A stretch of DNA of 64,000 bases from Anaerolinea sp. (GTDB lineage Bacteria; Chloroflexota; Limnocylindria; Limnocylindrales; CSP1-4): NCBI GenBank assembly GCA_013822395.1, contig PNKK01000007.1:3104-67103 (forward strand). The letters run 5' to 3'. This document shows, piece after piece, positions 8,113-28,331 of this stretch; the stretch's first letter is position 1; each line of letters begins with the position of its first letter. The position numbers were made by a program, and so were the translations under genes. Under the pieces are notes generated by a model that saw only the letters and a program-made list of their open reading frames with translations, did no database searches and had not been told where the DNA came from.

Positions 8113-8144
8113 GCGCGCCGCACGAGGGAGCGTGAGGAGACACG

Positions 8145-12996: not shown

Positions 12997-14004
12997 CTAC
13001 CTTTCCTGGATCGTGGTCGGGGCGCCGTGGATGGCCGGGATCGTCCCGAGGCGCCCCGCCTGATAATCGGCCACGGCCTGCATGAGCTCCTCGCGCGTAT
13101 TCATGACGAACGGGCCCATCCAGGCGACCGGCTCGCGGATGGGGCGGCCACCGAGGATCAGGATGTCCAGGTCCGGACTGCGAGACTCCTGCCGGCCGAT
13201 CGGCAGCGCCGAGATCGCCACGGCGTTCCCTGCGCCGAAGACCGCGAGCTGGCCCATCTGGACCGGCGCGGCCTCCGAGACGCCCGGCACCGTGGCCCCG
13301 ACGGTTCCGTACCCGGACATGACGTACACCAGCGCGTTGTAGTCGGCCCGCCACGGGATGGACAGTCGGGCGCCCGGGCTGAGCGTCGCGTGGACGAGTG
13401 TCATCGGCGTGTAGGTGGACCCGGGCCCGGCAAGGCCAGTGACGTCGCCGGCGATCACGCGGACGAGCGCGCCGCCGTCCGGCGACGTGGCGAGTGCGAC
13501 CTCGCCCGCCCGGATGTCCTGGTAGCGCGGCGCGGCGAACTTCTGGGCGGCCGGGAGGTTGACCCAGAGTTGGAAACCGTGGAAGAGCCCGCCCTTCGCG
13601 ACGAGCCATTCCGGCGGCTTCTCGATGTGGAGGATTCCGGCGCCGGCGGTCATCCACTGGGTGTCACCGTTGGTGATGACGCCGCCGCCGCCGTTTGAGT
13701 CGGCGTGCTCGAAGACCCCGTCGATCATGTAGGTGACGGTCTCGAAGCCGCGGTGGGGATGCCACGGCGTGCCCTTTGGCTCACCCGGCGCGTACTCGAC
13801 CTCGCCCATCTGGTCGAGGTGGACGAACGGGTCGAGGTCGGCGAGGTCGACGCCGGCGAACGCGCGACGGACAGGGAAGCCCTCGCCCTCGTAGCCCTTC
13901 GGGGCGATCGTGACGCTCCTGATCGGGCGCTGGCGCACCAGTACGGGATCCGGCTCCGGGATGCGGGGCAGGACGGTGATGTCGTCGACGGTAATCGCGG
14001 GCAC
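12997..14004 (-). CDS. Pirin-family protein
   Basis: 335 aa. WHPHRGFETVTYMIDGVFEHADSNGG cupin motif and a bicupin length. Confidence 0.9.
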   Translation of the reverse strand: MPAITVDDITVLPRIPEPDPVLVRQRPIRSVTIAPKGYEGEGFPVRRAFAGVDLADLDPFVHLDQMGEVEYAPGEPKGTPWHPHRGFETVTYMIDGVFEHADSNGGGGVITNGDTQWMTAGAGILHIEKPPEWLVAKGGLFHGFQLWVNLPAAQKFAAPRYQDIRAGEVALATSPDGGALVRVIAGDVTGLAGPGSTYTPMTLVHATLSPGARLSIPWRADYNALVYVMSGYGTVGATVPGVSEAAPVQMGQLAVFGAGNAVAISALPIGRQESRSPDLDILILGGRPIREPVAWMGPFVMNTREELMQAVADYQAGRLGTIPAIHGAPTTIQER

Positions 14005-14074
14005 GGAGGTGCTCCCTGACTGGCCGAGGGCCGGGTTGCTCGACGGTCTCGCCGGTCACACCCGGCGCACCTGT

Positions 14075-14096
14075 CATTTGCGTGGCTGCGCAAATG
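14075..14096. promoter_or_regulatory. Perfect 8-bp inverted repeat CATTTGCG-N6-CGCAAATG between the APC permease and pirin genes
   Basis: Read directly. It is unusually AT-rich for this genome. There is no U/T tract after it on either strand, so it looks more like an operator than a terminator. Confidence 0.3.
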
Positions 14097-14176
14097 GTTG
14101 CTCAGTCAACGACATCTGTCAAGGGCGTCCGGCGCCGCGCCGTCCTGGATCGCGTCGACGCGGCGACCGGCCACGA

Positions 14177-15832
14177 TCACTCGACCGGGATCTCGCGGTA
14201 GCTCGCCTCCAGCTTCACACCGCGACCGGCGCGGATGATCCGCGAGACTTCGAAGATCACGAGCCCGGACACGACCGTCCCCGCGGCGATGAGGAACCGG
14301 ACGACATCCTTCGTCAGGTTGCCGTCCTCGCCGGTCAGTGGCTTGAGCGCGAACCCGTCGAGGATATTGACCCCGGAGAGCGGATCGTTGAGGTATGCCC
14401 ACATCGCGACGGCCAGCGCGACGAGGCTCAGGCCGCCGACGATCGAGATCACCGGCAGGCCACCGGCCCGCCAGGCGATCGGCGACGACTCCCACATCGC
14501 CGGACGGCGGTACGGGAAGGCGATCGCCGCGATCGAGACGAGCATGAAGCTGACGATGAACGCGATGATCCCGACCAGCGTGGTGAAGTCGGGATTCGTC
14601 GCATAGACGGAGAGCGCGAGGGCGCTCATGGCGCCCACGACGGCGAGCGAGAAGACCGGCGTGTGGTAGCGGTCGCTGACCGACGCGAACCGCGCCGGCA
14701 GGATGCCGTCGAGGCCGTAGGCGAGGAGGTTCCGCGACGCGTTGAGGATCTGGCCCGGGAGCCAGGTGTAGCTCCAGAAGACGAACCCGACGCCGACGAT
14801 CAGGGCGACGAGGAGATTGCCGGAGGCGTACGCCGCGAGCTCGGAGAACGGGAGTGGGTACGGCTGGCCCAGGACATTCGAGCCGTACGGATCCCACCCG
14901 ACCGCACCAAGAAACGTGGTCCCGACTGTGCCCGAGATGAGTGCCGTCAGGACGATCGCGACGCCGACCGAGACGACCGCCGCGATCGGCATCGACCAGA
15001 GCTGGATCCGGCTTGCGCGCTTGATCTCGCCCCCGATGTATGCGGACGACTGGTTGAAGACGAGCTCGAGGTAGATCCAGGTGATCGGGATGAGCGTCCA
15101 GTAGAAGTCGGTCGGCGCCTCGCCGAAGCCGTCGCTGACCGCCGTCGCGATGACCGCCGCGTGCGTCCCGGTCAGACCGGTCGCGGGGTCCCAGAAACGG
15201 TTGAAGCTCTCGACGAAGGTTTGGCCCGAGCCCGTGAGCATCACGAGCGCGATGAGCCCCAGGCCGATGAGCGCGATCCCGAACAGGACGTTCTGGATCC
15301 GGAAGTAAACGTTGAGCCCCAGGCTGAACACCGTGACCAGCGCCGCGAGCAGGACGAGGCCGGTGATGATCGTCCCCTCGGGGGTGACGAACCAGTTGCC
15401 GATGTCGAGGAGGGTGCTGTTCCCGCCCATGAGTCCGAGGCTGCGGAAGAGCGGGCCCAGGCCGTAGCGCGCGAAGAACGCCGACGGCACGCCCCCGTAG
15501 ATGAACCACCAGACGGTGTTGATCCAACTGGACATCATCCCGAGCCGCGGACCCAGGATCCGGCTGACGTACACGTAGTCGCCGCCCGAGCGCGGCATCG
15601 CGGCGGCGAGCATGGCGAAGACGAGGCTCGTCGGCAGGACGATCGCGAGCGCGAGCAGGTAGCTGCCCGTCAGGTTTCCGCCGGGATAGAAGGCGGTCTC
15701 GAGCTGCAGGGCGAACATCATCATCAGCCCGATGCTGACGAAGTTGATGTTGTAGACGAGCGTGCTCCAGGTCCCAGCCTCACGGACGAGGCCGGTTGCC
15801 TGGCGTTGGTAGAGATCCCGACCGCTGGCCAT
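14177..15832 (-). CDS. APC-superfamily amino acid/polyamine-type permease (copy 1)
   Basis: 551 aa, about 12 helices. N-terminal QATGLVREAG..TLVYNINFVSIG and PRSGGDYVYVSR motifs of APC transporters. Confidence 0.85.
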   Translation of the reverse strand: MASGRDLYQRQATGLVREAGTWSTLVYNINFVSIGLMMMFALQLETAFYPGGNLTGSYLLALAIVLPTSLVFAMLAAAMPRSGGDYVYVSRILGPRLGMMSSWINTVWWFIYGGVPSAFFARYGLGPLFRSLGLMGGNSTLLDIGNWFVTPEGTIITGLVLLAALVTVFSLGLNVYFRIQNVLFGIALIGLGLIALVMLTGSGQTFVESFNRFWDPATGLTGTHAAVIATAVSDGFGEAPTDFYWTLIPITWIYLELVFNQSSAYIGGEIKRASRIQLWSMPIAAVVSVGVAIVLTALISGTVGTTFLGAVGWDPYGSNVLGQPYPLPFSELAAYASGNLLVALIVGVGFVFWSYTWLPGQILNASRNLLAYGLDGILPARFASVSDRYHTPVFSLAVVGAMSALALSVYATNPDFTTLVGIIAFIVSFMLVSIAAIAFPYRRPAMWESSPIAWRAGGLPVISIVGGLSLVALAVAMWAYLNDPLSGVNILDGFALKPLTGEDGNLTKDVVRFLIAAGTVVSGLVIFEVSRIIRAGRGVKLEASYREIPVE

Positions 15833-15885
15833 CTCGCTCTCCTATCTGCCCGCGGCCGGCCGACCGGCCGCGGATTCCTCCCCAC

Positions 15886-16836
15886 CTAGCCGGACACAAA
15901 CTGTTGACCGATCACCTTGCCTTTCTCGAGCGTGACGAGGACACCCTGGAGGGTCCCCTCCCCGTAGGTGCTCCCGGGGTTGATCACGACCGTTCGTCCG
16001 ATCCGCCCGGCCGCCTTCGACTCGTGGATGTGACCGTGGAGCGACAGGACGGGCTGGACGAGTTCGATCGCCGCGCGCACGGCCGTGCTGCCGACCGGCT
16101 CGACGAGCGGCTGGCCACCCCCGGACTCGACTCGCAGGTCGGCCGTCAGCTTGAGTGCCAGGTCGAGCCCGGAACCGTGGGGTGGATCGTGGAGGTTGAA
16201 GATCGTGGGCTGCCCCGGCACGAGCTGAGTGACGAGCTCATCGAGGGCCGAGGCCATCCCATCCTCGGTGACCTCCCGCGGACTGTGCCAGGGCGTCGAC
16301 GTGGAGTAGCCATAGCTGACGACCTGGTACCCCTCGAGCTCAACTCGGCGGCCCTCCGCGTCCACGATCCAGTCGCCCTGGGCGAGAAGCGACCTGATCA
16401 TCGGTTCGTCGTCGTTGCCGGGCATCATCAGGGCTGGAATGCCGGCCTTCCGAAGCCGCTCATCGGCAAGCGTGACCCAGCGCTCGGCCGTCTCGGTCAT
16501 GACTCGGCTGAAGGCCGCCTTGAGCTCGCCCGGGTCGGCGAGTCCCGCGGCATCGTCCGGGGTGGTCCGAAGCGGGTAGAACCCGTTCGTCCGGATCCGG
16601 TCCTCGAGCTCGTCCAGTCCGGTGCCGGCCTCAACCTCGTGGACCCGCCCGAAGAGGGTGGCCCGGAATCGGCCCGGCGCGACCTCGACGATGGGGACGA
16701 GGGCCTTGCCCGTGATGTCGCCACCAAAGATCACGGCATCCGCGCCGTAGAACGGGGCAGCGCTGAGGAACTTGCGGAAGACGCGCTCGGATCCATGAAT
16801 GTCCGACGCGAAGAAGATCGTCAGGCGGCTCTTCAC
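15886..16836 (-). CDS. Calcineurin-like metallophosphoesterase (copy 1)
   Basis: 316 aa, GTG start. Motifs SDIHGS, GGDITGK, MPGNDD and LHGHIHES. No signal peptide. Confidence 0.8.
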   Translation of the reverse strand: MKSRLTIFFASDIHGSERVFRKFLSAAPFYGADAVIFGGDITGKALVPIVEVAPGRFRATLFGRVHEVEAGTGLDELEDRIRTNGFYPLRTTPDDAAGLADPGELKAAFSRVMTETAERWVTLADERLRKAGIPALMMPGNDDEPMIRSLLAQGDWIVDAEGRRVELEGYQVVSYGYSTSTPWHSPREVTEDGMASALDELVTQLVPGQPTIFNLHDPPHGSGLDLALKLTADLRVESGGGQPLVEPVGSTAVRAAIELVQPVLSLHGHIHESKAAGRIGRTVVINPGSTYGEGTLQGVLVTLEKGKVIGQQFVSG

Positions 16837-16933
16837 CGGTCTCCCGCCCCGTCGCGCTGCCGGACACGGCGTGTGCCGCGCCGGCCTGCCCGGTCGCCGA
16901 GGTCGCCCTGGCCAACGGCACCCTCCCCCCCGG

Positions 16934-17833
16934 TCACGGCAGGGCCGGCCGGTCGTGGAAGACCGGTGTCAGCGGGAGCGTCTCGGCGTGCGCGGCGATC
17001 TCGCCGGCCGTCGCGATCCACAGCCCGTCGATGGAGCGTGCATGGTCCATCAGCCGCTCCAGGGCCGCGGCGCGCGACGGCCGGCCGCTCGCGAAGGGAT
17101 GGTTCGTCAGGACGAAGAGGCCGCCCTCGGTCACGAGCGCATCGAGCTCGAGGGTCCAGAGCTCAAGGACCTTCGTCGGGCTCTCGATGAGTCCGGAGCC
17201 CGACAGGCCGGGGAGGTAGATGTACTGCTCCCAATCGTCGAGACCCCAATGGACGGGCAGCTCGATGATGCTCGGCGCCCCCGGCTCCGGGCCGGCGGCG
17301 ACCCGGTAGGGATGATCCGCGTCCATCAGGCTCGAGTCGTACCGGAACCCATGGCGCGCCAGGATCCCCGGGCTCGCCCCGCTCGCCTCCCACATCGGCG
17401 CACGCCAGCCGACCGGGCGGACCCCGGCCACGCGGTCCAGAGCCTCCAGACCGCGCAGGAGGAGCCGCTCCTCCTCTTCTGGCGGGAGCTCGGAAACCGG
17501 CTCGTGGAGATAGCCGTGGTGGGCGATCTCGTGGCCGGCGTCCCGGATCGAGCGGACGACCACCGGCCACCGCTCGGCGGTGTAACCGGGGATGAAGAAG
17601 GTCGCCCGGATGCCCTGGCGGTCCAAGATCCGGAGGAGGCGGGGCACACCGGTCCGCGGGCCGTAGGCTTGGTGCGTCATCACTGACAGGCGACGGGCCG
17701 CCTCGGGAGCCCCGGCGAGGATCGCACTCTCCGCATCCACATCGAAGGTGAATGCCGCCGCGGCGCGGTAGCCGGGCGGCCACGCGAAGGGGACGGTCGC
17801 GGCGCTGGCGTTCTGGTTTGTGTCCGGGCTCAT
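16934..17833 (-). CDS. Polysaccharide-deacetylase (NodB) family hydrolase; a PuuE-type allantoinase-like role is possible
   Basis: ORF 16934-18046 trimmed to the ATG at 17833 (MSPDTNQ). FTFDVDAES, RATFFIPGYTAE and GHEIAHHGYLHE motifs. Confidence 0.8.
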   Translation of the reverse strand: MSPDTNQNASAATVPFAWPPGYRAAAAFTFDVDAESAILAGAPEAARRLSVMTHQAYGPRTGVPRLLRILDRQGIRATFFIPGYTAERWPVVVRSIRDAGHEIAHHGYLHEPVSELPPEEEERLLLRGLEALDRVAGVRPVGWRAPMWEASGASPGILARHGFRYDSSLMDADHPYRVAAGPEPGAPSIIELPVHWGLDDWEQYIYLPGLSGSGLIESPTKVLELWTLELDALVTEGGLFVLTNHPFASGRPSRAAALERLMDHARSIDGLWIATAGEIAAHAETLPLTPVFHDRPALP

Positions 17834-17888
17834 GGTCGGATCCTCGCGATCGGGCGTCTCAGGACGGCTGCCGGGCACTCGAGACTGA

Positions 17889-18602
17889 TCAGGCCATCGT
17901 GGTCCCGCCGTTCGGCTGGAGCACTTGGCCCGTGTAGTAGGCACCCTCCGGGGCAGCCAGGAAGACCACCGTTGCCGCGATCTCGGCGGGCGAGGCGATG
18001 CGGCGGAGCGGTGCGGCGTTGGCATAGCGTGCCCGGACCTCATCAAGCGTCACGCCGGCTGCCTCGGCGTCGACCGCCAGCTGGGAGGTGTCGATCGCCC
18101 CGGGTGCCACGGCATTCACCCGGACGTCTGGGGCGAGCTCGCGGGCGAGCGCTTTCGTGAGGCCGACGAGGCCGGCCTTGCTCGACGCGTAGGCCGTTGC
18201 CCCTGGCCAACCGGTCACACCCCACTCGCTCGAGATGAAGACGATCGACCCACGGGCGTGGACGAGGTGCGGCGCCGCTGCGCGGGCGAGGCGGAACGAG
18301 CCGCCCAGGTTCGTGTCCACGATCCGCCACCAATCGTCCACCGGGTGCGTGTCGACGGGCGCCATCGTCATCGCGGCATGGTTGGCCACAACCAGATCCA
18401 GGCGGGAGAACCGCTCGACGACGCGTGCGACGAGCTCGTCCGCGACCGTCAAGTCAGCGAGATCCCCGGCGAACGGACCATCTCGGTGGGTCGCGGCTGC
18501 GACGGTCCAGCCTGCGGCTGATAGCGCCGTGACGAGGGCGCGCCCAAGCCCACCGGCGGATCCGGTCACGAGGGCGACCCCGGTCCCACCGTCGGCCGTC
18601 AC
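17889..18602 (-). CDS. SDR-family oxidoreductase
   Basis: 237 aa. VTGSAGGLG cofactor motif, YASSKAG catalytic motif and NAVAPGAIDT. Confidence 0.85.
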   Translation of the reverse strand: MTADGGTGVALVTGSAGGLGRALVTALSAAGWTVAAATHRDGPFAGDLADLTVADELVARVVERFSRLDLVVANHAAMTMAPVDTHPVDDWWRIVDTNLGGSFRLARAAAPHLVHARGSIVFISSEWGVTGWPGATAYASSKAGLVGLTKALARELAPDVRVNAVAPGAIDTSQLAVDAEAAGVTLDEVRARYANAAPLRRIASPAEIAATVVFLAAPEGAYYTGQVLQPNGGTTMA

Positions 18603-19336
18603 TGGATCACGACCCCGCCGTTCGGCGAATACAGGGCGCCGGTGGACCAGGGGGCCTCGGCGAGGTGCAGGATCGCCTCGGCGATCTCCGCAGGTCTTCC
18701 GATCCGCCGGAGCGGCACCGTGTCCGTGTACGACGGCCCCCGATCGCGGTCAGGCAGGAGCGGCGTGTCCACCGCGCCCGGCGCCACGATGTTCACCCGG
18801 AGGTGGGGGGCGAGCTCGCGGGCCAGAGATCGGGCCAGCCCGATGAGCGCCGCCTTGCCGGCGACGTAGTGAGCGACCTCCACGCCGCCGCACAGGGCAA
18901 GCTCGGAGGCGACCACTACGATCGACCCGTGGCCCCGGGCGCGCATCCCCGGGACGACGGCTCTGGCGACATGGAAACCGCCCCCGAGGAGGACCCGGAG
19001 GCTCCGCTCCCACAGGACGTCGTCGATCGCGACGAGCGGCCGCTCCTCGTAGAAGCCCGCGTTGCAGACCGCCACATCGATCGGTCCGAGGGCGTCCTCC
19101 GCCGCCCGGACCATCGTGGCGACGGCATCCGGATCGGCCACGTCGCAGCCGAATGCGATGCCGTCGACCTCCAGGGCAACGGCCTCGCCGGCGGCCCGGT
19201 TCGTGCCGTAGTGGACGGCCACACGATACCCGGCCGTGGCGAACCGCTCGGCCGTGGCGCGGCCGATCCCGCCGCTCGCCCCGGTGACGAGGACGACTCG
19301 GCCGCGGTCGGCGGCCGGGCCGCCCGATCGACTCAC
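18599..19336 (-). CDS. SDR-family oxidoreductase
   Basis: 245 aa. VTGASGGIG, YVAGKAA and NIVAPGAVDTPL motifs. 4-nt overlap with the downstream SDR. Confidence 0.85.
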   Translation of the reverse strand: MSRSGGPAADRGRVVLVTGASGGIGRATAERFATAGYRVAVHYGTNRAAGEAVALEVDGIAFGCDVADPDAVATMVRAAEDALGPIDVAVCNAGFYEERPLVAIDDVLWERSLRVLLGGGFHVARAVVPGMRARGHGSIVVVASELALCGGVEVAHYVAGKAALIGLARSLARELAPHLRVNIVAPGAVDTPLLPDRDRGPSYTDTVPLRRIGRPAEIAEAILHLAEAPWSTGALYSPNGGVVIQ

Positions 19337-19352
19337 CGGTGAACCTTCGCGC

Positions 19353-20966
19353 TCACTCGGGCGGGATCTCGGCGAACGCCCGCTCGATGCGAACGCCGCG
19401 CCGCGCCTGGACGATCCGTGCCCCGAGGTACCAGAGGATGCCGCTCACCAGGACGGCGAGGGTCAGGATCTTCATCCGGTCGTCGCCCAGGACCGCCGAG
19501 GTGGAATCGAGCCCGTTGATCGGATCCGCCCACCAGATGTACTCGACGATGAGGAGCGCCGCCGTCGCGACGACCCCGATGATCGACATGAGCGGGACGC
19601 CGCCGATCCGCCAGTTGACCGGCGATGAATCGAAGACGGTCTTGAGGCGGTACGGGAAGACGATCGCCGCGATCGCGCAGACCAGGAACGACAGGATCCA
19701 GCCGAAGATGCCGTACAGCGTGTTGAGCCTGAAGTCGCCGATCCCGATCGTGTACATGAAGAGGGAGAGCCAGCCCAGGATCGCCACGATCACGATGGCG
19801 ACCGTGGGCGTATGGCGCTGCTCATTGACCTCGGAGACGCGACGCGGGAGCAGTCCATCCAGCGACCAGGCGAGAAGCGCCCGCGTGGATGCGATGAAGT
19901 TGATCGGCAGCCAGACGTACGTCCAGAAGACGAAGGTGAAGCCGAGCAGGAACGCGATCACGATGTTGCCCGGGTAGGCGGCTGCGACGAGCTCGTTGTA
20001 GGCGGGCACGAAGGACAGGCCGAGCTGGTCGGGCGAGAAGTAGTTGGCGCTGACGCCGCCCAGGATCGGCAGCCCGACCAGCTGGACGAGGCTCGCCACG
20101 AGCAGGATCATGAACACCGACACGAACAGGATGCCGCCCGGCATCCCGATGAGCTGGCTCACCCGCGCCCGCCGGACCTCGCCACCAAGGAAGCTCGAGG
20201 TGATCGCGAACAGAACGATGAACTGGGCGAGCGTCGAGCTGAAGACGGTCTGCTGCGCGTCGTATGGTGCCGGCTCGATCGCCACCGAGCTCGCGTTGGC
20301 AAGACCACCCGCGGCCGAGATGTAGCGGTCGAAGTTGGCGGCAAAGTCGGCCGAGCTGCCCAGGAACGCGAGCCCGATCGCGATGGCGATGCCGAACAGC
20401 CCGATCGCGAAGACGGAGTTCTGGATCCGGAAGTAGGTCCGCGTCCCCAACGAGAAGATGACCGCGAAGAAGGCGATCAGGATCGTGCCGACGGCGAGGA
20501 TCCAGACCGGGTCCACGAAGCGGTTTCCAAGGTCGACGAGATCGGCATTGCCACTGGCGACGCCCAGCGTCCGGAAGAGGCCCGACAGGCCGTACTGGGC
20601 GAAATAGGCAGCGGGGACACCGATGTACACGGTCATCCAGGCCACCCAGTTCCACGACGCCACGAACCCCAGGAGCGGGTGGAGTGTTCGGCTGATGTAA
20701 ACGTAGTCGCCGCCGGACCTCGGGATGGCCGCGGAGAAGAAGGCGTAGACGAGGGCCATCGGCAGCGCCAGGGCGAGCGCGAGAGCGATGCCCTGGAGCA
20801 GGTCTGCGCCGGCATAGAAGCCGGGTACGAACAGCAGGACGAACGCGACCCCGATGCCGATGTTCTGGTTGTTGACGTTGTAAACGAAGGTGTCCAGCGC
20901 GCCGATCTCCTTCGTCAGACCCGTCGCCTGACGAGTGAAGACCTTCACGCCACCGCCGGCTGTCAC
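19353..20966 (-). CDS. APC-superfamily permease (copy 2, diverged paralogue of 14177-15832)
   Basis: 537 aa. RQATGLTKEIG..FVYNVNNQNIG and PRSGGDYVYISR motifs. It aligns by eye with copy 1 along the N-terminal half. Confidence 0.85.
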   Translation of the reverse strand: MTAGGGVKVFTRQATGLTKEIGALDTFVYNVNNQNIGIGVAFVLLFVPGFYAGADLLQGIALALALALPMALVYAFFSAAIPRSGGDYVYISRTLHPLLGFVASWNWVAWMTVYIGVPAAYFAQYGLSGLFRTLGVASGNADLVDLGNRFVDPVWILAVGTILIAFFAVIFSLGTRTYFRIQNSVFAIGLFGIAIAIGLAFLGSSADFAANFDRYISAAGGLANASSVAIEPAPYDAQQTVFSSTLAQFIVLFAITSSFLGGEVRRARVSQLIGMPGGILFVSVFMILLVASLVQLVGLPILGGVSANYFSPDQLGLSFVPAYNELVAAAYPGNIVIAFLLGFTFVFWTYVWLPINFIASTRALLAWSLDGLLPRRVSEVNEQRHTPTVAIVIVAILGWLSLFMYTIGIGDFRLNTLYGIFGWILSFLVCAIAAIVFPYRLKTVFDSSPVNWRIGGVPLMSIIGVVATAALLIVEYIWWADPINGLDSTSAVLGDDRMKILTLAVLVSGILWYLGARIVQARRGVRIERAFAEIPPE

Positions 20967-21025
20967 CCGTTCCCTCCTTCCGCCGCGCCCAGCTCAGGAA
21001 CGCGGCCTCGACGCTTTCCGCTTGC

Positions 21026-21979
21026 TCAGCCCGAGACGAGCTGATGCGACACGACCTTGTCCGCCCTCAGCGTGACGATGGCCCCGTAGAGCGTGCCGGT
21101 GCTGTACGTGCTGCCGGGATTGATCGCGATCGTCCGGCCCACCCGGGCAGCCCCGCGTGATTCGTGGATGTGGCCGTGCAGCGAGACGACGGGTTGCGTC
21201 CGCTCGATGAACGAGCGGACCGCCGTGCTGCCGACCGGCACCATGACCGTCTCCCCACCCTCGATGACGACCGAGAGGTCGTCGCGGAGCTTCGGCGCCA
21301 CGTCCAGGCCCGTGCCGTAAGGCGGGACGTGGGTGACCAGGACGGTCGGCTTGTCCGGGTCGAGCTGGGTCTCGAGTGCTGCCAGGCGGGCCGCGATCTC
21401 CTCCTCGCCGTATTCGCGGTGGGTGTGCCACGGCGTCCGGTTGGACGGCCCGAAGCCGAGGATCTGGTACTCGCCGAGTTGGACGACCCGGCCGTCGGTG
21501 TTGACGACCTCCGCGGATTCCCCGAGCACGTCGTCGACGTACCAGCCGTCGTCGTTGCCGGGCATCACGAGGGCCCGGATCCCGGTCCCGTGAAGCCGCT
21601 CGTCGGCGAGCGCGAGCCAGTCGCGGAGAGTCTGGGCCATCACCTCCGTGAACACGCGATCGCGCCGCTCTGGGTCGGCGTCCAGGTCGCTGTACGCCTG
21701 CTCGTCGCAGCGGTACGGATAGAACCCGTTGAACCGGATCCGTGCCTCGAGCTCCTGGACCTCGGCCTCGGTCCGCGCGGTCTGGACCCGCCCGGCGACG
21801 TTCGCCTCGACGCGCCCGTCGCGGCGCGCCACCACCGGCACGAGCGCCTTGCCCGTGACGTCGCCGGCGACGATCACCGTGCCCACGTTGTAGAACCGCG
21901 CGGCATTGAGGAACTTGCGCCAGCAGATCTCCGACCCGTGGATGTCGGCGACGACGTAGACGCTCTGGCTCTTGCCCAT
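21026..21979 (-). CDS. Calcineurin-like metallophosphoesterase (copy 2, paralogue of 15886-16836)
   Basis: 317 aa. ADIHGSE, AGDVTGKALVP, MPGNDD and LHGHIHES motifs. It ends ..QLVSG, like copy 1 (..QFVSG). Confidence 0.8.
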   Translation of the reverse strand: MGKSQSVYVVADIHGSEICWRKFLNAARFYNVGTVIVAGDVTGKALVPVVARRDGRVEANVAGRVQTARTEAEVQELEARIRFNGFYPYRCDEQAYSDLDADPERRDRVFTEVMAQTLRDWLALADERLHGTGIRALVMPGNDDGWYVDDVLGESAEVVNTDGRVVQLGEYQILGFGPSNRTPWHTHREYGEEEIAARLAALETQLDPDKPTVLVTHVPPYGTGLDVAPKLRDDLSVVIEGGETVMVPVGSTAVRSFIERTQPVVSLHGHIHESRGAARVGRTIAINPGSTYSTGTLYGAIVTLRADKVVSHQLVSG

Positions 21980-22047
21980 CTCGGCTCCTCAGGCCGCCCG
22001 CCACGCCGAGGCGGAGCTCACCGCGGCCGTCAGCGTCACGAGTGACG

Positions 22048-22995
22048 TCATCGGCCGGCTCGCCCGAGCGCCACGAGCGACAGCATCTCGTAGGCGAGGT
22101 TGGCGGCGAGGAAGGCCGTCTGTCCGGCCGGGTCGTAGGCAGGGATCACTTCCACGACGTCGAACCCCACGAAGTCGATGCCCGTCAGCGCCCGGACCAC
22201 GGCGAGCATGTCGTGAGCCGACGGTCCGCCAGGCTCGGGTGTCCCGGTGCCGGGCGCGAAGGCCGGATCGACGACGTCGATGTCGAAGCTGATGAAGGCG
22301 GGCCGATCCCCCACCCGCTCGCGGATCGCCGCCGCGGTCGCCGCGGGCCCGAGCGCGAAGACATCCTCGGTCGTGAGGTAGTCGAGGCCCAGGTCGCTCC
22401 GCAGGCCGGTCCAATCCTGCGCGGCATAGATCGGTCCACGCAGGCCGACCTCGATCGAGTGGTCGACATCGACGAGACCCTCCTCGATCGCGCGTCGCAT
22501 CCACGTCCCGTGGTTGTGCTGCTCGCCGAAGTAGCTGTCCCAGGCGTCGGTGTGGGAGTCGAAGTCGATCACCGCGACCGGGCCGCGCGAGCGGGTCGCC
22601 CGGAGGTGCGGCAAGGTACAGGCGTGGTCCCCGCCGATGAGGAGCGGGACGACGCCGGCCTCGACGATCGGGCCGACCGCGGCCTCGATGGCCGCGTAGC
22701 TGCGCTCGATGTAGCCGGGGACGATCGCCACGTCCCCGTAGTCGACGCACGACAGGATCTCGAACGGGGCGATCTCCAGGTTCGGGTTGTACGGGCGGAG
22801 CATCACCGACGCATCGCGCACCGCGCCGGGCCCGAACCGGCCGCCGACCCGGTAGGTCACGCCTGTATCGAACGGGACTCCCACCAGGGCCACGTCGACG
22901 TCCTCGAGCGTCCGCACGTGCGGCAGGCGGGCAAACGTCACCGGTCCCGTGAACCGCGGCGACTGGAGTGAATCAGCCGGCGTGTAGCGGGGCAT
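22048..22995 (-). CDS. Agmatinase/guanidino-acid ureohydrolase (arginase family)
   Basis: ORF 22048-23049 trimmed to the ATG at 22995 (MPRYTPAD), preceded by GAGGAGG. Motifs GVPFDTG, LLIGGDHACT, VIDFDSHTDAWD and SFDIDVVDPAFAPGTGTPEPGG. Confidence 0.85.
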   Translation of the reverse strand: MPRYTPADSLQSPRFTGPVTFARLPHVRTLEDVDVALVGVPFDTGVTYRVGGRFGPGAVRDASVMLRPYNPNLEIAPFEILSCVDYGDVAIVPGYIERSYAAIEAAVGPIVEAGVVPLLIGGDHACTLPHLRATRSRGPVAVIDFDSHTDAWDSYFGEQHNHGTWMRRAIEEGLVDVDHSIEVGLRGPIYAAQDWTGLRSDLGLDYLTTEDVFALGPAATAAAIRERVGDRPAFISFDIDVVDPAFAPGTGTPEPGGPSAHDMLAVVRALTGIDFVGFDVVEVIPAYDPAGQTAFLAANLAYEMLSLVALGRAGR

Positions 22996-23065
22996 CGATC
23001 CTCCTCGTCCGCCACCGGGGCCGCCCCGACAGTGTGGGGAATGGAGCACGAGACGGCGCGTGCAC

Positions 23066-24655
23066 TCAACTGTCGGGTCCGATGACGTTCACGTCCTTCT
23101 GTTGTCCGATCGGATGACGCTGGGCGTCCCACGTCCATACTCCGATGTAGAGCGCCACCCGGTCGAGAAAGACGAGCGGGTCGCGTCCTGACAGCGCCCG
23201 GATCCGACGGAGCCGGTGCCGGAGCGTGTTGGGGTGGATATGGAGGCGGCGTGCCGTCGCCTCGACCCCGCCCTCGAGGTCGAGGAACGTCCGGAGGCTG
23301 GTGAGCAGCTCTGAGCCGTGGGTCGCGTCGTGCTCGGTGAGCGGCACGATGAGCTGATGCGAGAAGGCGTCCAGGCGGTCCGGCGGCTGCTGCCCGAGGA
23401 GCGTGGCCACGTTGGCCAGGTCCCGCCACGTCGCCATGCCGCCGTGCCGGCGTGCCTCCCCGTAGGCGGCCTCCGCCTCGACGAGGCTCCGTCCGAGGTC
23501 GCTGAGCCGCCCGGCGCTCCCGATTCCGCCGGTCAGCCCTCGCGCGGTCGCCACGGCCGTCAGCCGCTCGAGATCGTCCGCGATCACCACGAGGCGGTCG
23601 TCCTGCTGGCCGGCGACGCTCCGCGGCAACGCCCGGCGGAGTGGCTCGGCGACGTGCGCCGGCCAGATCGAGACGAACAGCCGGGTCTCGTCCAGATGCG
23701 CCTCGTCGACTCGCTCGGCGAGCACAACCGGATCCGCGACGCCGAGCCGGACGATCTGGAGGAGGCGCCCGACGAACGCGCGGTCGCGCGACCGCTCCTG
23801 CGCCCGCGTCGCGAGCTCGATGGAGACGATCGGTGCAGCCTCGTACAGGATCTCGATACCGTCTGGGGCCGAGGACGATGGTCTGAGCCGGCACAACCAG
23901 CCGATGGTCTCCTGCTGGTGACGCACCGCCACGAGGTCACAGGTCGTGCCGTCGGCCTCAATGGTCGCCCGGCGGTCACCGGGCCGGACACGGCCGACCG
24001 CGCGTTGCACGGCCTCGACGGCCTCCGGCCCACCTGGTCCGACGACGGCCTCCGGTGACCCGTGGAGGTCGGCGATGACGATCACGGCGTCGAGCTCGCG
24101 GGCCAGGCTCAGCGTGATCCCGTCCAGCCCGCGGCCCTGGGCAAGGAGGTCGAGCAGGTGCATCTCGCGACGCAGCGCACGCCGGTCGCGATCCGCGCGA
24201 CTGGTCGCCATCCGCTCGGCGAGCTCTTCCGTGATCGCGATGAACGGGACATCGATCGGGACGTTGAGGAGTGGCAGTCCGGCGGCCTCGCAGGCGGCCC
24301 GGAGCTCCGGCGGCGAGGTGGAGTGGTAGTTGCCGCAGCCGAATCCGATCCCCGAGGCGTCCCGCTCCAGGACCGCCGCCACGAACGCCCGGCACGACGC
24401 CTCGTCGACGAGCACCGAGCCCATCGTCAGGACGAGCTCGTGGTCGCGAAGGTACGGCCGGGGGTCGAGAAGCTCGATCGCGTGGGCCCAGCGCACTGGA
24501 CGGTCCAGCCCGGCCTCGCCCGCGATGAGCTCGAGCCGGAGCGACCCGATCGCGAGCAACTCCCGGACCGTGGCCAGTCCGGGGCGGCTCGATCGACTCG
24601 CCCGTCCGAGCGGGCGTCCGGCGGGAGAACCGGCGTGCCTCTGGGTCATCGCCAC
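23066..24655 (-). CDS. PucR-family transcriptional regulator (second copy)
   Basis: 529 aa. N-terminal VRWAHAIELLDPRPYLRDHELVLT and C-terminal HTH (TARRLHIHPNTLRHRLRRI). Confidence 0.85.
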   Translation of the reverse strand: MAMTQRHAGSPAGRPLGRASRSSRPGLATVRELLAIGSLRLELIAGEAGLDRPVRWAHAIELLDPRPYLRDHELVLTMGSVLVDEASCRAFVAAVLERDASGIGFGCGNYHSTSPPELRAACEAAGLPLLNVPIDVPFIAITEELAERMATSRADRDRRALRREMHLLDLLAQGRGLDGITLSLARELDAVIVIADLHGSPEAVVGPGGPEAVEAVQRAVGRVRPGDRRATIEADGTTCDLVAVRHQQETIGWLCRLRPSSSAPDGIEILYEAAPIVSIELATRAQERSRDRAFVGRLLQIVRLGVADPVVLAERVDEAHLDETRLFVSIWPAHVAEPLRRALPRSVAGQQDDRLVVIADDLERLTAVATARGLTGGIGSAGRLSDLGRSLVEAEAAYGEARRHGGMATWRDLANVATLLGQQPPDRLDAFSHQLIVPLTEHDATHGSELLTSLRTFLDLEGGVEATARRLHIHPNTLRHRLRRIRALSGRDPLVFLDRVALYIGVWTWDAQRHPIGQQKDVNVIGPDS

Positions 24656-24690
24656 CGATGGTAGGCGCCCGGCCGTGGCTCGGGGGGCCG

Positions 24691-25635
24691 CTATGCGGTC
24701 CGGCCGAGGGTCTCCATGAGCATCCGGATGAACTTCGGCTCGTCCGCGTCCATCGCGAAGTGGACGTTCGGGGGCTTCCGGCTGCGGAAGCGGAAATCGC
24801 AGACCGTCCGCCCGACGGACAGTTCTCCGCCCGTCTCCACGTCGACCGGAATGAACTGCGTCGTGATGACGGTCGAGTCGATGATCGCACAGACGGCCAG
24901 CGCATCATGGACGGGCGCTGCGCTTGCGCGGTGCATCGGCTGCGTCGCGTCATAGCCCTCGATCCGCTTCTCGACGAAGCGCGCGGCCGCTTCGGCGGCG
25001 GGGGTGCCGAGGGCGCGGAGGGCGCGGCAGTCATCGAGTGAGACGAGCGCCCGATGCGTTGCATCGAGCGGGACCATCCGAATGGGGCGACCGCAGTTGA
25101 CCACGATCCGCGCGGCCTCCGGGTCCAGCCAGATGTTGAACTCGGCCGAGGCGGTCGAGTTTCCGTGGTCGTGGGCGCCGCCCATGATCACGATCTCGGG
25201 GATCTTCTCGAGGATCCGCGGCTCCTTCTGGATCGCGGTCGCGACATTCGTGAGCGGTCCGACGGGGACAAGGGTGATGTCGCCGTCCGAGGCCAGGAAC
25301 GTGTCGATCAGCCAGTCGACGGCGTGCCCCGGCTGGATGCGCGCCGTCGCCGCCGGCGGGAGGTCCAGGAGGTCGCCGTGGATCCGGCTCGCCGGGTTCA
25401 GCTGGGTCATCTGCTGCCGGGCGAGCGGCCTGGTCATCCCCTGGTGGACGGGAATCTGCGGCAACCCGATCCAGTCGAGGACGCGAAGGGTGTTCTCCGT
25501 GCAGCTGTGGACCGCCGTGTTGCCGTTGACGGTCGTGGCGCCGATCAGCTCGATGTCGGGCGAGAGCGCCGCGACCATGAGCGCGACGGCGTCGTCGGTT
25601 CCGGTATCGACGTCGAGGATGACCTTCGTGGGCAC
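24691..25635 (-). CDS. Nucleoside hydrolase (inosine/uridine-preferring family)
   Basis: 314 aa. The KVILDVDTGTDDAVALMVA signature (DxDxxxDD) is at the N-terminus. Confidence 0.9.
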   Translation of the reverse strand: MPTKVILDVDTGTDDAVALMVAALSPDIELIGATTVNGNTAVHSCTENTLRVLDWIGLPQIPVHQGMTRPLARQQMTQLNPASRIHGDLLDLPPAATARIQPGHAVDWLIDTFLASDGDITLVPVGPLTNVATAIQKEPRILEKIPEIVIMGGAHDHGNSTASAEFNIWLDPEAARIVVNCGRPIRMVPLDATHRALVSLDDCRALRALGTPAAEAAARFVEKRIEGYDATQPMHRASAAPVHDALAVCAIIDSTVITTQFIPVDVETGGELSVGRTVCDFRFRSRKPPNVHFAMDADEPKFIRMLMETLGRTA

Positions 25636-25729: not shown

Positions 25730-27718
25730 CTACTGCTGGGTCAGCCGGACGAAGGCATCGACGTCCACCCGGGGGCGCCCCGCGGTCCCAGCGGCGACGA
25801 TCGTGATCTTGCGCTTCCCGGTGGAACCCCAGTTGAAGGCGAAGACAACCTGCTTCGCGGAGTACGTCTTGGCATACAGGCTGATCGACTTCTTGTAGAC
25901 ACCATCCACATACACCCGCGCCGATCCCCGGTCCGGCCCACGGTAGGCCACCCAGGCGACCCCGGATCCGGTGAACGTGTACGTGGCCGACGCGCCCTTC
26001 CGCGTCGTGTACTTCAGCGTGCCGCCGGAGGCGTAGCGATTCGCGGCGCTCTTCCAGGTTCCGGAGTAGACGACGGACGAGCTCGTCTGCTCCGTCAGGA
26101 GCGTGGCCCCGCGTGCCCCGGGCACCCACTCGCTCGTGTTGCCCACGCCGTCGGCGGCCCGCGTCGCATATCCATAGGTGGTTCCGAGGGTCAGTGGCTC
26201 GGTGACCGACGTGGACGATGCCGTGGGCAACGCCAGGTCCTCCCAGATCCCGTCGCCGACCTGGCGCTGGAGGCCGTAGGCGGCGATGCCACTGGGATCC
26301 GCAGCCGACCAGATCGTCTGGACGGGGATCGTGGAGTCCAGCTTGACGGGGTATGTCAGTCGGAATGCGGGCGCCGTGACCACGGGCGGCAGAGCATCGG
26401 TGACGGTGAGGGTCGCCGTGGTGGTTCGCGTCACGCCGCCGGCGCTCCCCGTGATCGTCAGGGGGTACGTGCCGGCGGGCGTCGGCATGCCGATTGCCGA
26501 CGTCGTCACCGTGAGCATTGACGACGTGTCCGTCACGGGTGACGCGCTGAGCGACGCCGTGGTCCCGGCCGGAAGACCGGCGACGCTGAGATCGATGGGC
26601 GTCGTGAAGAACGAGCGCGCGAGCGTGATCGCGAAGGTCGCCTGGCCTCCCTGCTCCACGGTGGCTGCCGGCGGCGACGGCGAGAGCGCGAAGTCCGCAC
26701 CGAAGGTCACGGGTGTCAGGTCCGTCCCGTTGTAGCGGTCCAGGTCCACACACCCGCTGATCCCCGGAACATACCCGCAGTTGTCGTACTGCCAGAACGT
26801 CCATCCGCGATTGGACCAGTTGTTCGCCGGGACCGTCGGGCCGGAGACGAACCAGTGGGCGACCCAGAGCACGTTGTACCCCTGGTCCGCGAAGGCGGTG
26901 GTATCGGCGAGGTACTTCCGCCAGAAGCTCGGGCTCGCATAGATCATCGGCCGCATGCCGGTGCGGGCATAGACGCGGCTCAGCCACGCTCCGACCCACG
27001 CCTGCAGCTCACCGGCGCTCAGCGTCCCCGCGACCTCGAGGTCCAGCGCCGGGGCCAGCATTCCCGGGACGAGCCCGAGGTTGTCCACGAACCAGTCGGC
27101 CTCACCCTCCGGGTTGGTGGGGTTCAGGTCCGGACGCGCGAAGTGATAGGCGGTGAAGGCCAGCCCGGCACTGCTCGCACCGAGCCTGTTCGTGACGTAC
27201 ATCGGGTCGACGAACCCGATTCCCTCCGTGGCCTTGGCGATGACGAATCGCTTTCCAGAGCCCGCGAGCGAGGTGAAGTCGACCGCTCCCTGCCACCGCG
27301 AGATGTCCACGCCCTCCAGGAAGGCCGGGGCATCGGCGGGCCTGAACAGCCCCGTGCCCGCGTAGGCCACGTCGACACCGAAGAGTGCCGAGACGCTCTG
27401 TCCGTTGACCGTCACGACCGAATACCAGGTCGACCCGGCGCCCGCCGAGCCGCAGGTCACCGACCAGGGGCCGCCCGACACGACCCCGGATACCGTCACC
27501 ACAGACCCAGTCGACAGCATGGTGGTGATCGAGGCGGACGTCGAGGGCGCCGAGCGCAGGTTCACCCCGCAGTTCGCCGCGAGGCTGGTGGTCGCGGCGA
27601 GGTCGGTCGCGGCTCGGGCGGTTGGTGCCACAAGCGGCATCATTTCCGCGAGGACGAGCAGGGCGAGCGCTCCCGCGAGCACGCGCCGGCGAGCGTCCCG
27701 TAGGGATCGAATGGTCAT
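25730..27718 (-). CDS. Secreted multi-domain GH25 muramidase with an SH3-like N-domain and Ig-like/beta-sandwich C-domains
   Basis: ORF 25730-27805 trimmed to the ATG at 27718 (MTIRSLRDARRRVLAGALALLVLA..ARA signal peptide). GH25 core GVDISRWQGAVDF...VIAKATEG.....AYHFARPD. The C-terminal 300 aa are beta-rich (..TYTFTGSGVAWVAY..). Confidence 0.8.
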   Translation of the reverse strand: MTIRSLRDARRRVLAGALALLVLAEMMPLVAPTARAATDLAATTSLAANCGVNLRSAPSTSASITTMLSTGSVVTVSGVVSGGPWSVTCGSAGAGSTWYSVVTVNGQSVSALFGVDVAYAGTGLFRPADAPAFLEGVDISRWQGAVDFTSLAGSGKRFVIAKATEGIGFVDPMYVTNRLGASSAGLAFTAYHFARPDLNPTNPEGEADWFVDNLGLVPGMLAPALDLEVAGTLSAGELQAWVGAWLSRVYARTGMRPMIYASPSFWRKYLADTTAFADQGYNVLWVAHWFVSGPTVPANNWSNRGWTFWQYDNCGYVPGISGCVDLDRYNGTDLTPVTFGADFALSPSPPAATVEQGGQATFAITLARSFFTTPIDLSVAGLPAGTTASLSASPVTDTSSMLTVTTSAIGMPTPAGTYPLTITGSAGGVTRTTTATLTVTDALPPVVTAPAFRLTYPVKLDSTIPVQTIWSAADPSGIAAYGLQRQVGDGIWEDLALPTASSTSVTEPLTLGTTYGYATRAADGVGNTSEWVPGARGATLLTEQTSSSVVYSGTWKSAANRYASGGTLKYTTRKGASATYTFTGSGVAWVAYRGPDRGSARVYVDGVYKKSISLYAKTYSAKQVVFAFNWGSTGKRKITIVAAGTAGRPRVDVDAFVRLTQQ

Positions 27719-27725
27719 CTCGTGC

Positions 27726-28331
27726 TCACGGCTGCCAGGGCTGCATCTCGATGGTGCCCGCCGATCCGGCGGGCCCGAGGCACGGCGGCACGCCGCCCAG
27801 GCCACTCGGCGAGTCCGGTGCGGCGACCACTCGACCCAGGCCCTCGGGGAGAACGAACGCCACGGTCACCGGCGGGGCGGGCTCCGGACCACAGTAGTTC
27901 GAGTCCCGGACGTCGGTTCTGAGAAGGCCGCCCGGAGCGACCTCGATCGCCTGCGACGCGCCCGGCGGCGCACCGTCGATCAGGATCGTGCCCCGACCGT
28001 CGAGGAGCTGCGGGCGGGTGAGGCCGAAGACCACGCAGGGATCGGTACCCGCGTTGCGGAGCTCCACGCTGCCGATACGGCTCCCGGCGGCCCCGCTCCA
28101 CCCCGTCACCTGCACGGCCAGCGAGGTCGGTGCGCAGGGACCCACGGCCGTCGAGCCCAGGGGCGAGGGTTGGGTGGTCTCCGCAACGGCGCTGGTCGGC
28201 GACGGTTCGAAGCCTGACGGACTCGAGGTGCCCTGTGGCACGCACGAGCTCGCGACCGCCCCCACGAGGAGCGCGACGAGAAACGAGATTCTCGCTCGAG
28301 CGGGCGAAACGACGGATGCCGCGGGCCTCAT
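27726..28331 (-). CDS. Lipoprotein with a DUF4232-like domain
   Basis: 201 aa. Lipobox-like LVGAVASSC. Paired Cys pattern (GPCAPTSL...LRNAGTDPCVVFG...NYCG...PPC) typical of DUF4232. Confidence 0.6.
   Translation of the reverse strand: MRPAASVVSPARARISFLVALLVGAVASSCVPQGTSSPSGFEPSPTSAVAETTQPSPLGSTAVGPCAPTSLAVQVTGWSGAAGSRIGSVELRNAGTDPCVVFGLTRPQLLDGRGTILIDGAPPGASQAIEVAPGGLLRTDVRDSNYCGPEPAPPVTVAFVLPEGLGRVVAAPDSPSGLGGVPPCLGPAGSAGTIEMQPWQP

Follow-up and report, generated by a model that had tools for sequence, protein, structure and literature searches.

Nine of ten consecutive minus-strand genes at positions 14177-25635 of a 64,000-nucleotide stretch of contig PNKK01000007.1 from Anaerolinea sp. 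(Chloroflexota; the whole stretch is called the window below) belong to a recurrent, modular and widely conserved cluster. The nine genes encode a PucR-family regulator, an arginase-fold ureohydrolase (ARG-A), two metallophosphoesterases (MPE1 and MPE2), two APC-superfamily permeases (APC1 and APC2), two short-chain dehydrogenases/reductases (SDRa and SDRb) and a NodB-fold hydrolase (NodB). The remaining gene encodes a nucleoside hydrolase (NH). We tentatively suggest, giving this reading a little less than an even chance, that the nine genes form a PucR-controlled, nitrogen-scavenging catabolic cluster for a guanidino compound, built from three conserved modules.

Conservation and modularity of the cluster

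Comparison of the window with relative loci (designated by L-numbers) revealed that the gene combination recurs in other phyla at 45-55% protein identity. The core consists of the two SDR genes, ARG-A and NodB, together with PucR and an APC-superfamily permease. In M. smegmatis and a Streptomyces the genes are arranged as APC-SDR-SDR-ARG-NodB-Rieske oxygenase-reductase-PucR, with the Rieske oxygenase and its reductase in the place of MPE. Phycicoccus carries PucR beside the series APC-SDR-SDR-ARG-NodB-class III aminotransferase-aldehyde dehydrogenase, and the last two genes would be expected if an omega-amino compound is produced. M. grossiae has the minimal core set only, and the core is also present in metagenome loci L149 (truncated, showing SDR-ARG-NodB), L150 and L163; PucR was not detected in L149 or L150. 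The M. smegmatis/Streptomyces operon, which is uncharacterised, contains orthologs of SDRa, SDRb, ARG-A, NodB and PucR and keeps SDRa ahead of SDRb, but it lacks MPE, and ARG and NodB are adjacent there whereas they lie apart in the window. The M. smegmatis permease belongs to a different APC subfamily than those of the window, with TIGR03428 the closest model.

The full combination including MPE was found in Chloroflexota (L001, L098 and L175; MPE identity 79-81%) and in metagenome-assembled genomes (MAGs) of Actinomycetes/Gaiellales (L013, L015, L016, L018, L020, L029 and L058; MPE identity 53-55%), where PucR is divergent and is followed by NodB-APC-SDR(-SDR)-MPE-APC-ARG. Two phyla retain the full combination, with approximately 50% identity and differing gene orders, which speaks for selection acting on the set as a whole, and the association of the SDR pair, NodB, the ureohydrolase and PucR thus appears to be under selection. 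The preliminary description of this DNA, which had been made from the sequence alone and had regarded a lack of synteny in related genomes as fatal to the idea of a ten-gene island, is therefore upheld in its view of a recurrent syntenic unit. There is no fixed ten-gene block, however, since the cluster is put together as a mosaic from three modules, which are also found separately.

MPE-APC is the most deeply conserved association within the cluster. A scan based on an alignment of MPE relatives, with one genome per species, kept 80 loci of 569 relatives, and neighbors were annotated by phmmer and counted over 79 loci. An APC permease directly adjoined MPE in 70 of the 79 loci and was no more than 3 kb away in 78. 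The loci come from Chloroflexota, Actinomycetota and Dormibacterota, with a few from Proteobacteria and Bacillota and one on a contig labelled with the archaeal genus name Thermofilum; named MPE relatives came from Chloroflexota, Limnocylindrales and Thermomicrobium, and the contig of the window probably derives from Limnocylindria. The window holds the pair twice, and L024, L036, L096, L099, L106, L109 and L174 likewise carry MPE2-type genes together with APC2-type permeases. The APC1-type and APC2-type permeases represent distinct conserved lineages, which occur together in L001, L012, Thermomicrobium and the Actinomycetes MAGs. In Dormibacterota, MPE-APC is flanked on one side by a choline/ethanolamine-kinase-family gene and GntR, and on the other by an iron-containing alcohol dehydrogenase, an aldehyde dehydrogenase, two DAO+GCV_T demethylating dehydrogenases and an electron-transfer flavoprotein. 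The pair adjoins a GMC oxidoreductase and an aldehyde dehydrogenase in other Actinomycetota, and in Solirubrobacterales a B12-binding mutase-like protein, a MutL-type partner and a class III aminotransferase. These neighborhoods fit a module that would import and dephosphorylate small, amine-bearing phosphate esters resembling phospho-amino alcohols.

Several of these loci have further features of their own. In some Actinomycetota as well as in Dormibacterota, MPE-APC lies inside choline/dimethylglycine-type clusters (L043 5603-19594 and L042 8175-15215), in which kinase and phosphoesterase stand side by side. Two loci (L028 5749-12613 and L077 5679-12595) combine an APC permease, an arginase paralog, a BtpA-family TIM-barrel protein, an MPE2-type gene, a PfkB kinase and an 'NTP_transf_5' nucleotidyltransferase, a family that also follows MPE-APC in Solirubrobacterales.

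A corresponding scan of metagenomes for NodB yielded 80 loci for comparison (median length 6 kb). ARG-A adjoins NodB in 39 of these 80 mostly short loci, often as overlapping genes, and the two genes are neighbors or overlap in L086-L093. An NCS1 permease and/or a cytosine-deaminase-family (CodA) enzyme without SDR genes was present in 38 of the 80, SDR without NCS1/CodA in 19, and both in a single locus. The four-gene set of ARG-A, NodB, NCS1 and CodA occurs in at least two arrangements, and the deaminase beside ARG-A/NodB exceeds the cut-off of the NCBIfam cytosine-deaminase subfamily (521 vs 483). No NCS1 or cytosine-deaminase gene was found elsewhere in the window.

The closest relative, L174 (MPE identity 87%), has the same backbone as the window, with xanthine-dehydrogenase-like genes, NH, MPE1-APC1-SDRa-SDRb-MPE2-APC2 and pirin in that order. 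It has no PucR, ARG or NodB, and a thymidine kinase gene occupies the position of PucR and ARG. The breakpoints located by blastn on the window are 24690/21980 and 17888/16837, and the segment 17888-16837, which carries NodB, is absent. That L174 keeps MPE-APC-SDR-SDR-MPE-APC alone indicates that this front block can function, or at least persist, by itself.

The same comparisons bear on NH (24691-25635, minus strand; inosine-uridine type, IU_nuc_hydro), which matches PF01156 with 286 bits and has an N-terminal DxDxxxDD motif, but reaches no NCBIfam equivalog cut-off. NH accompanies none of the 79 MPE loci and one of the 80 NodB loci. It is retained in L174 (87.5% DNA identity), beside thymidine kinase, although PucR, ARG and NodB are missing there. 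Because of this distribution, NH is probably a chromosomal backbone gene that lies beside the cluster without being functionally part of it; the preliminary description had included it.

Close relatives of the window carry extra genes between PucR and MPE (L001 4406-9981, L098 3675-5685 and L175 5335-9971). These include an ECF-type transporter with a CbiQ-like T component in L001 and L175, and ARG-B, a paralog of ARG-A, in L001 and L098, so that L001 has both. The ECF and ARG-B set is similar to ureohydrolases reported for guanidine and metformin, which depend on nickel and are in some cases heteromeric. A nickel-dependent system of the guanidine/metformin-hydrolase type was rejected for the window, which has neither an ECF CbiQ-type transporter nor a second arginase paralog. 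A 392-residue M24 protein of creatinase/prolidase fold, encoded between the permease and the SDR pair of L175 (12688-13866), was likewise rejected as a pointer to creatine or ectoine, as it matched no specific NCBIfam model. Class III-type zinc alcohol dehydrogenases stand beside the cluster in L150 (4099-5819), L001 (1320-2423) and L175 (140-3652), with a metallo-beta-lactamase-fold hydrolase in one case and an amidase in others. The model that they match best, though below its cut-off, is S-(hydroxymethyl)mycothiol dehydrogenase, and they could hint at release of formaldehyde by N-demethylation in some versions of the cluster.

Predicted functions of the cluster proteins

ARG-A (22048-22995, minus strand; Arginase family) matches PF00491 with 284 bits and contains the arginase-superfamily motifs GGDH, DFDSHTD (DxHxD) and SFDIDVVDP (DxD), which align with those of GbuA. 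Among solved structures, it scored highest against guanidinobutyrase 3NIO (261 bits), followed by guanidinopropionase 3NIP (244) and proclavaminate amidinohydrolase (PAH; 222), with solved agmatinases at no more than 200 bits. Identity is 85-88% to the ARG genes of L086/L087, which are fused to NodB, and 47% to the ARG of the M. smegmatis operon. In GbuA, R72 from the neighboring subunit caps the active site and is the proposed contact for the acidic group of the substrate, and the human enzyme of the GbuA type acts on guanidino acids, not on agmatine (PMC9772407). The sequence SVMLRPYN in ARG-A corresponds to SVMIRPYN in GbuA, preserving the R72 equivalent. This Arg is present in all ARG-A orthologs, including those of M. 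smegmatis and Streptomyces, while the position is Ala in the Burkholderia and E. coli agmatinases and Leu or Phe in ARG-B, which is 30-36% identical to ARG-A. Because its nearest solved relatives are GbuA and GpuA and the GbuA-type Arg is conserved, ARG-A is likely a GbuA/GpuA-like guanidino-acid hydrolase, predicted to carry out a terminal release of urea. In its specificity residue ARG-A, an agmatinase-family ureohydrolase in the preliminary description, is not agmatinase-like; the view taken there that a guanidino group is attacked and urea released is likely correct. ARG-A shares with GbuA/GpuA of P. aeruginosa, and with human GDAH/AGMAT, the binuclear-metal motifs as well as the R72 equivalent, and urea and an omega-amino acid would likewise be the expected output. 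It differs in that no curated model makes ARG-A an ortholog of these enzymes and in its genetic coupling to NodB. To our knowledge, no operon has been described in which GbuA or GpuA works alongside a NodB hydrolase, SDR pair or phosphoesterase.

It is conceivable that the cluster instead serves agmatine or polyamine metabolism, with a true agmatinase acting on agmatine, or on an N-acyl or hydroxylated agmatine released by NodB, to yield putrescine that is transaminated and oxidised. ARG-A passes the NCBIfam agmatinase equivalog TIGR01230 (209 vs a cut-off of 174.3), polyamines and agmatine are carried by APC permeases, and the aminotransferase and aldehyde dehydrogenase of Phycicoccus could be putrescine aminotransferase and aminobutyraldehyde dehydrogenase. 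However, ARG-A misses the agmatinase subfamily PRK02190 (288 vs a cut-off of 302), the characterised guanidino-acid hydrolases outscore all solved agmatinases, and the carboxylate-capping Arg of GbuA is kept where solved agmatinases have Ala. Known agmatine routes also provide no role for the SDR pair, and we consider this explanation improbable.

The score of PAH, third-best among the solved relatives of ARG-A, raises the question of guanidino natural-product biosynthesis, in which the ureohydrolase would resemble PAH and MPE would take off a phosphate that serves as protection, as happens in streptomycin-type pathways. Aminoglycoside biosynthesis does include guanidino intermediates that are phosphorylated, which is in keeping with this idea. 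We nevertheless give it only the slightest probability: the cluster has no synthetase, amidinotransferase, glycosyltransferase, non-ribosomal peptide synthetase or polyketide synthase, or resistance gene; it has two APC-type importers and a PucR-type catabolic regulator; catabolic aminotransferase and aldehyde dehydrogenase genes follow it in Phycicoccus; and it is spread very widely in soil and freshwater metagenomes.

NodB (16934-17833, minus strand; NodB-fold, CE4-like, Polysacc_deac_1) matches PF01522 with 68 bits, and its best solved relative is 3RXZ of M. smegmatis (338 bits, against 79 for PuuE 3CL6); BLAST identity to the M. smegmatis protein is 55%. All five CE4 motifs are present (MT1 Asp-Asp, MT2 with two His, RxP, DxxW and the MT5 catalytic His), and residues D31, D33, H101, H105, R144, P146, D199, D200, W201 and H245 are invariant in 12 NodB orthologs. 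In a published structural survey, 3RXZ is listed as functionally uncharacterised and is one of only two members of its subclass with all five residues, and non-carbohydrate substrates are suspected for its group (PMC10967932). The NodB of the window is an ortholog of 3RXZ within this NodB1.2 group (3RXZ/3QBU). The absence of a signal-like segment at its N-terminus, judged by eye, together with a gene position always among cytoplasmic catabolic genes, argues against a cell-wall substrate. NodB is predicted to be a metal-dependent amidohydrolase that would convert an amide or a cyclic acyl-guanidine to a guanidino acid.

An alternative suggestion of the preliminary description, that NodB is a PuuE-type allantoinase, does not hold, because NodB scores 88.9 bits against the NCBIfam PuuE model TIGR03212 (cut-off 424.6) and retains the CE4 metal and catalytic residues. 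PuuE has fold and subclass in common with NodB, and is a precedent for a 'polysaccharide deacetylase' that opens a hydantoin-type ring; however, PuuE is metal-independent, whereas NodB keeps all five CE4 catalytic/metal residues and is partnered with a ureohydrolase instead of an allantoicase or hydantoin racemase. These results also weigh on the possibility of a purine, pyrimidine or allantoin island, in which NH would free a base, PucR would act as in Bacillus and NodB would be the allantoinase. A PucR-family regulator, NH and a PuuE-related fold do occur together here, the window has another PucR with oxamate-carbamoyltransferase-like genes as well as a xanthine-dehydrogenase-like enzyme, and genes for an NCS1 permease and a cytosine-deaminase-family enzyme are frequent neighbors of ARG-A/NodB. 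Against this, besides the PuuE score of 89 vs 424.6 and a CE4 metal triad that metal-independent PuuE does not need, NH does not co-occur with the cluster, the cluster lacks uricase, allantoicase, ureidoglycolate and dihydropyrimidinase genes, and arginase-fold enzymes target guanidino or amidino groups and not ureido groups. A purine-type island is therefore highly improbable.

MPE1 (21026-21979) and MPE2 (15886-16836), both on the minus strand and of the Metallophos family, combine a calcineurin-like fold with the corresponding metal motifs. Their Pfam matches are marginal (for MPE1, PF12850 at 30.2 vs 27 and PF00149 at 25.1 vs 21.5; for MPE2, PF12850/PF14582/PF00149), but the metal-ligand motifs D12-x-H14, G39-D40, G141-N142-D143-D144, H217 and G269-H270-x-H272 are invariant in 60 sequences, and MPE2 carries them as well. 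The two proteins are 50% identical, MPE2 being an old paralog of MPE1. An AlphaFold model of MPE1 (pLDDT 94) gave Foldseek probabilities of 1.0 to aq_1956, TT1561, SbcD and 5'-nucleotidase, the best being aq_1956 and TT1561, and the sole match of its sequence to solved structures was marginal (2YVT, E = 0.08). As these fold matches are uncharacterised or very distant, no function can be transferred from them. The family is discrete and full-length (428 clusters at 50% identity and E<=1e-30), and the window MPE has an insertion of approximately 90 residues (45-135) that probably caps the active site. The calcineurin-like fold, metal ligands and GNxD are common to MPE, YfcE/MJ0936-type phosphodiesterases, aq_1956 (2YVT) and TT1561 (1UF3), but MPE has the cap insertion and misses the YfcE model TIGR00040 (21 bits for MPE1 and 20.5 for MPE2, with a cut-off of 56.25). 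We predict that MPE is a cytoplasmic phosphoesterase of an uncharacterised family that removes phosphate from an imported compound. The permeases, APC1 (19353-20966) and APC2 (14177-15832), both AA_permease_2 proteins on the minus strand, match PF13520 over residues ~20-480 with 67 and 69 bits, respectively, and are 39% identical to each other. Neither reached an NCBIfam subfamily cut-off, and APC1 had no close relative among solved structures, with a weak xCT match only. APC1 is predicted to be the importer paired with MPE1, and APC2 the one paired with MPE2.

SDRa (18599-19336) and SDRb (17889-18602), both adh_short proteins on the minus strand, are classical SDRs whose motifs are intact and that match PF00106 with 156 and 138 bits; YxxxK is present in both and TGxxxGxG in SDRa. 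They are 38% identical to each other and reach no specific NCBIfam equivalog, and SDRa resembles generic FabG-like proteins only among solved structures. SDRa corresponds to the first SDR of the M. smegmatis operon (44% identity), and the SDRa-SDRb order is kept. Identity of SDRb to the second SDR of the M. smegmatis (33%) and Streptomyces operons is 33-39%, and SDRb is the probable partner of SDRa. The regulator gene (23066-24655, minus strand; PucR+HTH_30) encodes an N-terminal PF07905 domain (94 bits) and a C-terminal PF13556 (HTH_30) domain (63 bits), as in the PucR family, and the protein is approximately 36% identical to the M. smegmatis copy. PucR genes accompany the cluster in L001, L098, L175, the Actinomycetes MAGs, M. 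smegmatis, Streptomyces, Phycicoccus and M. grossiae, and PucR is likely a substrate-responsive activator of the cluster.

A candidate guanidino-compound route

In the route that we infer, including its step order, its cyclic intermediate, the hydrolysis of a phosphate ester by MPE and the kind of substrate, an APC permease would import a cationic or zwitterionic phosphate-ester compound and cytoplasmic MPE would strip the phosphate, exposing a hydroxyl. The coupled SDRs may then carry out two NAD(P)-dependent oxidations of the freed alcohol, probably by way of a guanidino-aldehyde that cyclises to a hemiaminal, to give a cyclic acyl-guanidine (lactam) or another N-acyl form. NodB would open or deacylate this product to an omega-guanidino acid, from which ARG-A would release urea and an omega-amino acid. 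PucR would induce the genes on sensing the substrate or an intermediate, and the second MPE-APC pair could handle a related phospho-compound or a breakdown product. The model is based on the replacement of MPE by a Rieske oxygenase and reductase, since either can create a free hydroxyl before the dehydrogenases. Since NodB and ARG-A are also found with an NCS1 permease, direct uptake of the cyclic intermediate appears to be possible as well. The preliminary description had postulated uptake, dephosphorylation, two redox steps and amide or ring hydrolysis, all of which appear to fit the families present. It had also stated that no characterised pathway has this combination, and we found none in the searchable literature, nor any description of the cluster or of the M. 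smegmatis operon there. The pathway and the MPE-APC module are thus undescribed, although every enzyme family is known.

A number of observations weigh against a single guanidino-catabolic pathway. The Actinobacterial core has no phosphatase, which implies that the substrate need not carry phosphate, and MPE has GNDD where GNH(D/E) is usual, besides being only marginally recognized by Pfam. The Actinomycetes MAGs use ARG-B, without the GbuA-type Arg, and the final step may therefore differ there. For the M. smegmatis operon we inferred the locus tags MSMEG_4369-4376 from the coordinates of the adjacent FmdB (MSMEG_4368) and formamidase (MSMEG_4367) genes; these tags are not among the nitrogen-limitation-induced genes in the portion of the M. 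smegmatis data available to us, in which other agmatinase/deacetylase genes (MSMEG_4459, MSMEG_1072/1074 and MSMEG_5728) are listed. Scans of the window for promoter and terminator consensus sequences yielded nothing above shuffled expectation and defined no transcript. Finally, the absence of PucR, ARG and NodB from L174 and the NodB loci with NCS1/CodA and without SDR demonstrate that the modules are separable.

A rival explanation is that independent modules lie side by side and share only PucR nitrogen-related regulation. The MPE-APC-SDR-SDR-MPE-APC block would then serve a phosphorylated amino alcohol of the choline/ethanolamine type, and ARG-A and NodB would form a separate route for a cyclic guanidine, e.g. 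creatinine or glycocyamidine. The clean breakpoints of the L174 front block, the 38 of 80 loci in which ARG-A/NodB have NCS1 and CodA-family neighbors without SDR or MPE, and the presence of MPE-APC in choline/dimethylglycine and B12-mutase settings without ARG or NodB are all in line with such an arrangement. However, in Actinobacteria that lack MPE altogether the SDR genes directly adjoin ARG-NodB, so that the SDRs are tied to ARG and NodB no less than to MPE, and the full combination is kept in two phyla despite divergence to approximately 50% identity and different gene orders. We regard independence of the modules as unlikely, though far from negligible.

Within the proposed guanidino-compound pathway, a more specific version can be postulated, in which the cluster is an undescribed pathway for guanidino-alkyl phosphate esters of animal or soil source, such as guanidinoethyl phosphate or the earthworm phosphodiester lombricine. 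The MPE family would work with a dedicated APC importer, and the SDRs would take the guanidino alcohol through a cyclic hemiaminal to a cyclic acyl-guanidine of the glycocyamidine/creatinine type. The 3RXZ-type NodB would then be a non-homologous 'creatininase' and ARG-A a non-homologous 'creatinase/glycocyaminase'. We consider this version decidedly unlikely as it stands. Creatinine is classically degraded by creatininase, creatinase and sarcosine oxidase, and the first two steps have the same logic as that proposed for NodB and ARG-A, namely opening of a cyclic acyl-guanidine followed by amidino hydrolysis to urea. The window has no creatininase (PF02633) or creatinase ortholog, and NodB and ARG-A would be non-homologous replacements. 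Creatinine is also utilised by Corynebacterium glutamicum through the NCS1 permease CrnT and a CodA-type creatinine/cytosine deaminase, and ARG-A/NodB lie repeatedly beside an NCS1 permease and an enzyme of the cytosine-deaminase subfamily (521 vs 483). If the phosphate-ester version were true, NodB, ARG-A, NCS1 and the CodA-type enzyme would constitute a widespread and unrecognised system for creatinine/glycocyamidine utilisation.

Gene layout, neighboring loci and wider significance

Pfam and NCBIfam matched the families and gene order given in the preliminary description, and its ten minus-strand genes with gaps of 100 nt or less were confirmed, the largest gap being 97 nt. From NH to APC2, the intergenic gaps are 35, 70, 68, 59, 16, -4, 55, 97 and 53 nt, the negative value being a 4-nt overlap of the SDRa stop and SDRb start. 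GC content is approximately 70% throughout the window, and all ten genes have a coding signature in their codon-position GC (GC3 0.84-0.93, GC2 0.44-0.57). An open reading frame at 20994-22004 from a mechanical list was rejected as the first phosphoesterase gene, being an out-of-frame shadow (GC3 0.47) of the real MPE1 gene. Ribosome-binding sites of the GGAGG/GAGGA type precede ARG-A (start 22995) and NodB (start 17833), in agreement with the start codons chosen earlier, and Shine-Dalgarno-like sequences lie upstream of seven of the nine starts downstream of NH. The minus-strand run does not stop at the ends of the ten-gene set: upstream, a GH25 gene (25730-27805) precedes it by 94 nt, downstream, a pirin gene (12997-14004) follows after 172 nt, and the run goes on beyond both. 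Strand and spacing therefore cannot by themselves delimit the unit. An Rfam scan of the whole window found nothing at gathering score, and hence no riboswitch or other RNA signal, and k-mers common to the intergenic regions were GC-rich noise with no candidate PucR box. The 172-nt spacer between APC2 and pirin (14005-14176) contains a TTGACA hexamer and a perfect palindrome, CATTTGCG-N6-CGCAAATG, and looks like a separate pirin promoter/operator marking the downstream boundary of the cluster.

Three other loci in the window deserve mention. At 636-6427, a second PucR-family regulator (636-2228, minus strand) is divergent from oxamate-carbamoyltransferase-like genes, the first of which matches PF11392 (AllH) with 90 bits, while the next two are FdrA-like and DUF1116-like by reading of the translations only; this is a separate cluster of nitrogen-heterocycle or oxalurate type. 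An isochorismatase-family hydrolase (7408-8112) is followed by a 540-residue membrane protein (8145-9767) with no Pfam match at E<=1e-5, and by a small protein (9889-10281) matching the allophanate-hydrolase C-terminal/GGACT domain, and these genes (7408-10281) may be another small unit for amide or ureide utilisation. The block at 28415-35148, approximately 79% identical to L174 at the DNA level, contains a xanthine-dehydrogenase-type molybdenum hydroxylase with its FAD subunit (identified by reading translations and from the L174 families) beside a luciferase-like monooxygenase and a PF06684 'amino acid synthesis' protein (both from the window scan).

It has been recognised only recently that guanidino compounds, among them guanidine, guanidino acids, creatinine, phosphagens and metformin-like pollutants, make up a nitrogen reservoir for microorganisms, and several proteins annotated as 'agmatinase' have already proved to be something else. 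The cluster ties a GbuA-like ureohydrolase, an orphan NodB with a solved structure (3RXZ), an SDR pair and an MPE-APC pair to one undescribed route, in hosts that are abundant Chloroflexota and Actinomycetota of soil and freshwater. M. smegmatis carries the core, which makes the problem accessible to direct genetic testing, and solving the cluster would assign a function to thousands of proteins now called 'polysaccharide deacetylase', 'agmatinase' or 'Icc-related phosphoesterase'.

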